Shown here: piece by piece, positions 12,807-13,651 of the stretch
Position numbering within the stretch: position 1 is the first letter of the stretch
Layout: each line of letters starts with the position of its first letter
DNA from: Escherichia coli
Lineage (GTDB): Bacteria > Pseudomonadota > Gammaproteobacteria > Enterobacterales > Enterobacteriaceae
Assembly (NCBI RefSeq): GCF_003334305.1
Contig: NZ_QOWS01000002.1
DNA length: 64,000 nucleotides
Strand: one strand, 5' to 3'
Notes under the pieces: generated by a model
Seen by the model: only the letters and a program-made list of their open reading frames with translations
What the model was told of the DNA's origin: nothing
Databases searched by the model: none
Position numbers and translations under genes: made by a program

Positions 12807-13187
12807 GTGTCAGACACACTCCCCGGGACAACGCTTCCCGACGACAACAAAGACCGCCCCTGGTGGGGGCTGCCCTGCACCGTGACGCCCTGTTTCGGGG
12901 CACGTCTGGTGCAGGAGGGTAACCGGTTGCATTACCTTGCAGACCGCGCCGGTATCAGAGGCCGGTTCAGCAATGCGGATGCATACCATCTGGACCAGGC
13001 TTTTCCACTGCTGATGAAACAACTGGAACTCATGCTCACCAGCGGTGAACTGAATCCCCGGCATCAGCATACCGTCACGCTGTATGCGAAAGGGCTGACC
13101 TGCGATGCCGACACCCTCGGCTCCTGTGGTTACGTTTATCTGGCTGTTTATCCTGCGACCAAAACGGAAAGTAACCCTCCGGAATAG
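12807..13187 (+). CDS. cbeA: CbeA (YeeU) antitoxin of the CbtA/CbeA system
   Basis: Recognised sequence ([13 protein letters not shown]...); GTG start at 12807 with GAGGA ribosome-binding site. Confidence 0.85.
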
Positions 13188-13267
13188 CCTTCTGCTCCGG
13201 CCTGGTGCTTTCACCAGCCACGCCACTTTTCCATTTCTTATATCTGCATATCAGGAAAATCTTCAGT

Positions 13268-13651
13268 ATGAAAACATTACCCGACACACACGTACGGGCG
13301 GCATCGCGCTGCCCGTCTCCGGTTGAAATCTGGCAGACACTGCTCACCCGACTGCTGGACCAGCACTATGGCCTTACGTTGAATGACACACCGTTCGCTG
13401 ATGAACGTGTGATTGAGCAGCATATTGAGGCAGGGATTTCACTGTGTGACGCGGTGAACTTTCTCGTTGAAAAATACGTGCTGGTACGAACTGACCAGCC
13501 GGGATTCAGCGCAGGAGCCCCGTCGTCTCAGTTAATCAACAGCATTGATATTCTCCGGGCTCGCAGGGCGACCGGCCTGATGACCCGGGACAATTACAGA
13601 ATGGTAAATAACATTACCCTGGGCAAGCATCCGGAGGAGGCGAAACAATGA
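13268..13651 (+). CDS. cbtA: CbtA (YeeV) cytoskeleton-binding toxin
   Basis: Recognised sequence ([30 protein letters not shown]...); start placed at ATG 13268. Confidence 0.85.

Follow-up and report, generated by a model that had tools for sequence, protein, structure and literature searches.

An intact cbeA–cbtA family gene pair

We analyzed 64,000 nucleotides (nt) of Escherichia coli DNA (contig NZ_QOWS01000002.1 of assembly GCF_003334305.1), below called the window, with a focus on positions 12807–13651, where an earlier note had placed a CbeA/CbtA (YeeU/YeeV) toxin-antitoxin pair. An antitoxin gene of the cbeA/yeeU family (type IV) occupies 12807..13187 on the plus strand and encodes 126 amino acids (aa) plus a stop codon from a GTG start. 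Directly downstream and on the same strand follows a toxin gene of the cbtA/yeeV family (13268..13651), which encodes 127 aa plus a stop codon from an ATG start. Between them lies a spacer (13188..13267, plus strand) that holds the ribosome-binding site of the toxin gene. The short gap that the note had described thus measures 80 nt, compared with 88 nt in K-12 (PMC5371832). RefSeq lists the genes with the same ends as the coding sequences (CDS) WP_097343870.1 and WP_000854686.1. The RefSeq/PGAP annotation of E. coli strain A7, whose chromosome matches the window at 100% identity across 29,760 bases, contains the identical two CDS with identical ends. The module is an intact, previously annotated and very common E. 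coli toxin-antitoxin pair of the CbeA/CbtA family, with nothing new about it.

Both open reading frames (ORFs) can be extended in frame, to an ATG at 12699 for the antitoxin and to a GTG at 13205 for the toxin. We chose the shorter starts because they match K-12 CbeA and CbtA, the N-terminus of the crystallized YeeU proteins (2H28 and 2INW) and the RefSeq calls in strain A7. The toxin gene has an AGGA motif 11 nt upstream of its ATG, as in K-12. The 25 nt preceding the start are identical to K-12 for the toxin and differ at two bases for the antitoxin, so that both start codons proposed in the note are well founded. We also considered the GTG of the antitoxin gene as a weakening mutation and rejected this, as K-12 cbeA starts with GTG too. 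Alignment with K-12 CbeA and CbtA ran over the full length of both proteins and revealed no frameshift or premature stop, which bears out the description of the genes as intact.

Family membership was clear for both proteins. The antitoxin matched the Pfam family PF06154 (CbeA_antitoxin) with E = 1.9e-54 (residues 18–117, model positions 1–100 of 101) and the toxin matched PF06755 (CbtA_toxin) with E = 2.2e-59 (residues 1–113, model positions 1–112 of 112). Such values over nearly whole models are far beyond what chance would give. Among the three K-12 pairs the label CbeA/CbtA is the correct one, since identity is 90% to CbeA and 86% to CbtA compared with 59–64% to the other paralogs (64% to YfjZ and 61% to YafW for the antitoxin; 64% to YpjF and 60% to YkfI for the toxin). 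In a sequence search of the PDB the antitoxin matched YeeU of Shigella (2INW, E = 6.7e-77) and of E. coli (2H28, E = 4.7e-76), followed by YfjZ structures (E ∼ 1e-41). For the toxin, this search returned no relative of solved structure, the top match (E = 0.39) being meaningless. NCBIfam held no family for the antitoxin, the toxin or five neighboring proteins, and the RefSeq names must therefore stem from other rules. In PHROGs the antitoxin had no match and the toxin only a weak, partial one, to phrog_23459 (function unknown).

Compared with K-12, the ratio of nonsynonymous to synonymous substitutions (dN/dS, Nei–Gojobori) was 0.37 in the antitoxin gene and 0.23 in the toxin gene; compared with the copy in strain UTI89, it was 0.44 and 0.18, respectively. 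Values of about 0.2–0.4 indicate that both proteins are under purifying selection. The identification made in the note is thus corroborated by Pfam, identity to K-12, the PDB homologs of the antitoxin, RefSeq and selection alike.

The antitoxin differs from a common allele (WP_001285602.1) by the single residue change E119K, which lies in the C-terminal tail and not within the Pfam domain. The underlying base is an A at position 13161 in the window and a G in the common allele. This is the sole difference from many records that are 99.9% identical over 12700–13760. Folding of the 80-nt spacer RNA gave z = -0.80, i.e., no significant structure, and a regulatory structure in the spacer is therefore unsupported. 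An Rfam search of the whole window placed no RNA family within the gene pair or close to it.

Abundance and relation to known pairs

Of 5426 complete E. coli genomes, 4929 (about 90%) contain DNA similar to 12700–13760, at a median of three and up to 14 places per genome. The pair itself occurs at an identity of at least 99% in 293 records, and a protein search yielded 2622 toxin-family clusters. For sequence type 73, as many as 8 copies per genome have been reported in a published survey (PMC10790755). Strain A7 has a second place with similar DNA. A tblastn search of the window detected this pair only. The pair is one more copy of a family that about 90% of the complete genomes possess, usually in several copies.

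The pair occupies the tRNA-proximal end of an island that is inserted at the tRNA-Ser gene serX, and is not in the CP4-44 prophage where K-12 carries cbeA–cbtA. In many respects it resembles the K-12 CP4-44 locus: the antitoxin gene comes first, the Pfam families, GTG and ATG starts and ribosome-binding contexts agree, the spacer is nearly identical, genes for a RadC/JAB protein and DUF987 lie upstream, and a YeeW-type gene overlaps the toxin stop codon. The chromosomal site is different, the K-12 locus being next to tmaR and yeeA and the window pair next to ghrA. Within the toxin, residues 6–15 of K-12 CbtA (VLPGQAASSR) are replaced, including Arg15, the MreB determinant of K-12 CbtA, and an additional residue is present near position 83. 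The C-terminal tails of both proteins also deviate from K-12. Among the K-12 pairs CbeA/CbtA is the closest relative, but the chromosomal position does not correspond, and the window pair is thus a paralogous copy and not the orthologous K-12 cbeA–cbtA locus itself.

The serX-island pair of UTI89 (UTI89_C1148/C1149) shares the insertion site beside ghrA and the gene order from DUF932 to DUF4942. Its toxin is 91% identical to the window toxin and has the same DTHVR...C type of N-terminus. It differs in having a spacer of 46 nt with unrelated sequence, and its toxin has 124 aa with K-12-like residues 82–86. The remaining K-12 pairs, YpjF/YfjZ of CP4-57 and YkfI/YafW of CP4-6, share with the window pair the two Pfam families, the gene order, the neighboring genes, Phe65 (F65) and Cys15. 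YpjF and YkfI have been shown to be toxic and to be neutralized by any of the three K-12 antitoxins (PMC5371832). Both pairs are more distant, at 59–64% identity, with toxins of 109 and 113 aa and spacers of 20 nt. Their antitoxins YfjZ and YafW are 105 aa long, without the 14-residue extension that the window antitoxin has at its N-terminus.

The window allele combines features of two of these loci. Its DNA identity to K-12 CP4-44 is 96% in the stretch flu–yeeR, 94.6% in yeeS–yeeT and 88.5% in the toxin-antitoxin region. Its spacer belongs to the K-12 CP4-44 type, but over its first ∼15 codons the toxin gene follows the type of the UTI89 serX island, and we therefore consider the allele a mosaic of the two types. 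The recombination mosaic lies within 13188–13310, and its breakpoint is approximately at the start of the toxin gene. Other strains carry this module, with the same toxin protein, at serX, and in an O6:H16 strain it is located at serW, the twin tRNA gene.

Predicted activity of the toxin

We conclude that the module is very probably a functional CbtA/CbeA-family type IV toxin-antitoxin copy at the tRNA-proximal end of a P4-like island at serX, and put the probability of this at roughly 85%. The conclusion builds on the integrity of both genes, their family membership, the presence of F65, the conserved start contexts, the purifying selection and the location. The RefSeq annotation, the abundance of the pair and the enrichment of the related UTI89 serX fragment in a filamentation screen (PMC6206680) also speak for it. 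Four observations weigh against it. A promoter scan of the surrounding gene block found 4 sites compared with 4.8 expected by chance and none above chance, so that expression is not demonstrated. In bacterial two-hybrid assays (BACTH), no interaction with MreB was detected for CbtA, YpjF or YkfI (PMC5371832), so that even in K-12 the MreB arm of the mechanism is less firmly established than the FtsZ arm. When the K-12 antitoxins were expressed in cis, YkfI and YpjF were only partly neutralized (PMC5371832). Finally, the window toxin has Arg14 and Cys15 where K-12 CbtA has Ser14 and Arg15.

Toxicity, targets and mode of neutralization we infer from experiments with K-12. There, CbtA uses separable surfaces to bind its two targets, FtsZ at the H6/H7 loop and MreB at the flat face (PMC5624674). 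With the change F65S, CbtA, YpjF and YkfI no longer bind FtsZ, the change R15C abolishes MreB binding in K-12 CbtA and turns the phenotype into filamentation, and the F65S/R15C double mutant is harmless (PMC5624674). F65 is present in the window toxin and in all 80 cluster representatives that we aligned. Inhibition of FtsZ by the window toxin is therefore a safe expectation: the 127-aa protein would bind the H6/H7 loop through the surface containing F65 and thereby block division. It may in addition inhibit elongation by binding to MreB at its flat face. This second activity is plausible, although with Cys15 in place of the determinant the K-12 results on MreB cannot be transferred to the window allele without a test. 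The statement in the earlier note that CbtA inhibits both FtsZ and MreB polymerization describes K-12 data, and it can be expected to carry over to this allele for FtsZ but not directly for MreB.

An alternative is that the pair is functional but its toxin acts on division only, binding FtsZ and not MreB by virtue of Cys15, and would produce filaments instead of lemon-shaped cells. The specific loss of the MreB interaction in the K-12 R15C mutant suggests this, as does YkfI, which also has Cys15 and gave no detectable two-hybrid signal with MreB (PMC5624674). Furthermore, the UTI89 serX fragment encoding the 91% identical toxin (Gly14 and Cys15) was enriched in a screen in which filamentous cells were sorted (PMC6206680). 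That fragment, however, also carried cbeA and the DUF5983 gene, and cells were selected by light scatter and not by shape class. YpjF binds MreB in spite of Cys15, the reverse change C15R had no effect in YpjF or YkfI, and both of these toxins yield lemon-shaped cells (PMC5624674). The authors of that study state that the MreB determinants of YpjF and YkfI are unknown. Cys15 is moreover the majority state of the family, found in 57 of the 80 cluster representatives compared with 16 that have Arg, which makes the Arg15 of K-12 unusual. The requirement for Arg15 is thus specific to K-12 CbtA and not to the family, and Cys15 is no bar to membership. On balance we regard a division-only toxin as possible but unlikely, and prefer the reading as a functional family copy with MreB as a plausible second target. 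For work on this strain it is useful to note that the toxin N-terminus is of the common Cys15 type and not of the K-12 Arg15 type.

The genes flanking the pair

An ORF of 227 aa and unknown function (12113..12796, plus strand) ends 10 nt upstream of the antitoxin start. It is missing from all three K-12 loci, where the DUF987 gene is directly followed by the antitoxin gene. K-12 CP4-44 aligns on either side of the ORF and not across it, with the last few codons remaining. The protein had no match in Pfam, NCBIfam, PADLOC or, by sequence, in the PDB, and matched phrog_5162 (function unknown). Its family is large, with 3543 representatives at 50% identity. A structure model was confident (mean predicted local distance difference test score, pLDDT, of 94.9), and a comparison of this model with PDB folds gave no convincing match.

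Downstream, a full-length DUF5983 (YeeW-like) gene encodes 162 aa (13648..14136, plus strand; ORF and RefSeq). Its ATG overlaps the stop codon of the toxin gene by 4 nt (ATGA), and this overlap suggests translational coupling. The gene has been noted as a constant downstream partner of CbtA (PMC10790755; bioRxiv 10.64898/2026.06.09.728211). K-12 yeeW is a 64-aa remnant of it, so that CP4-44 differs from the window both in lacking the 227-aa ORF between DUF987 and antitoxin and in having the DUF5983 gene cut down.

These differences bear on a further alternative, in which either the Cys15 class as a whole is FtsZ-only, with the dual action of K-12 CbtA as the exception, or the 227-aa ORF and DUF5983 modulate the module, which would then natively be more than a two-gene system. 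The K-12 toxins are toxic, and are neutralized, without the 227-aa ORF or the DUF5983 gene (PMC5371832), and neither gene is therefore required for the function of the two-gene pair. We consider this alternative doubtful in both its forms.

Mode of action of the antitoxin

Of K-12 CbeA, the only member for which this mode is known, Masuda 2012 (as cited in PMC5371832) reported that it bundles FtsZ and MreB filaments and does not bind CbtA. By analogy, the 126-aa window antitoxin would bind and bundle both kinds of filament and so offset the toxin without contacting it. CbeA, YfjZ and YafW each neutralize all three K-12 toxins (PMC5371832).

The antitoxin might instead act mainly by lowering toxin expression, for example on the toxin mRNA in the manner of type V systems. 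The window antitoxin is indeed closely matched by the Shigella structure 2INW, which can be counted for such a mode. Neutralization of all three K-12 toxins by antitoxins that are ∼60% identical and expressed from separate plasmids (PMC5371832) is, however, more easily explained by action on a shared target than by mRNA recognition. The intergenic RNA has no significant structure, and filament bundling has been reported in vitro (Masuda 2012, as cited). We find an expression-lowering antitoxin improbable and retain the type IV assignment.

The earlier note had further suggested that an intact copy is relevant to stress and phage phenotypes. For stress there is some support from K-12: deletion of all three toxin genes made the cells less resistant to oxidative stress, and deleting the genes for the antitoxins enhanced early biofilm formation (PMC5371832). 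We found no support for a role against phage. PADLOC matched no defense model to any of the ten proteins of the block, and a literature search on the family and phage defense returned mostly “CbTad” anti-defense proteins and nothing relevant. As the antitoxins cross-neutralize, a single copy is unlikely to give a clean, strain-specific phenotype.

Genomic context

The serX gene, tRNA-Ser(GGA), is located at 15427..15514 on the minus strand (ARAGORN, Rfam tRNA and RefSeq) and is the integration site of the island. Beyond it follow the core genes ghrA, ycdX, ycdY and the csg operon. Positions 1–15514 of the window make up the P4-like island, which carries a GTPase gene, an Ag43/Cah autotransporter gene, a large hypothetical gene and others.

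The pair is part of a tightly packed block at 9923–14350 with the gene order DUF932, antirestriction, RadC/JAB, DUF987, 227-aa ORF, antitoxin, toxin, DUF5983 and DUF957. In addition to the genes described above, it contains genes for DUF932 (9923–10741), an antirestriction protein (10833–11318), RadC/JAB (11334–11810) and DUF987/YeeT-like (11873–12094), identified from the RefSeq annotation of the identical A7 sequence, PHROGs and ORFs, as well as DUF957 (14153–14350). A DUF4942 gene follows at 14435–15277; this and the DUF957 gene were identified from ORFs and RefSeq annotation, and all six are on the plus strand. Strong intrinsic terminators are predicted on the plus strand just upstream (9845..9874, a 13-bp stem followed by a T run) and just downstream (14378–14404) of the block. 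The two flank the nine genes, and none is predicted inside. In the region as a whole 13 terminator-like sites were predicted, compared with 5.4 ± 2.5 in shuffled sequences.

It is highly improbable that the pair is a silent remnant of an island in decay and has lost its function: the block has no promoter-like site above chance, insertion sequence (IS) elements and frameshifted genes lie nearby (IrmA and fecI in strain A7) and the K-12 relatives are located in cryptic prophages, but both ORFs are intact with conserved translation signals, dN/dS is 0.2–0.4, and hundreds of genomes retain the pair in identical or near-identical form.

Some minor features were seen elsewhere in the window. An IrmA-family gene at 9057–9511 (plus strand) is annotated as frameshifted in the identical A7 sequence and is intact in strain 503025, and ymdA at 23275–23585 (plus strand) is likewise annotated as frameshifted in the identical A7 sequence. 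Rfam matches above the gathering score comprised the IS102 RNA upstream of the Ag43 gene (3243–3479, plus strand) and, on the minus strand, the small RNAs ES056 (21114–21205) and ES036 (CssrF; 31298–31340), the PyrC leader (40471–40520) and the RNase E 5′ untranslated region element (62252–62588). These elements are ordinary E. coli features.
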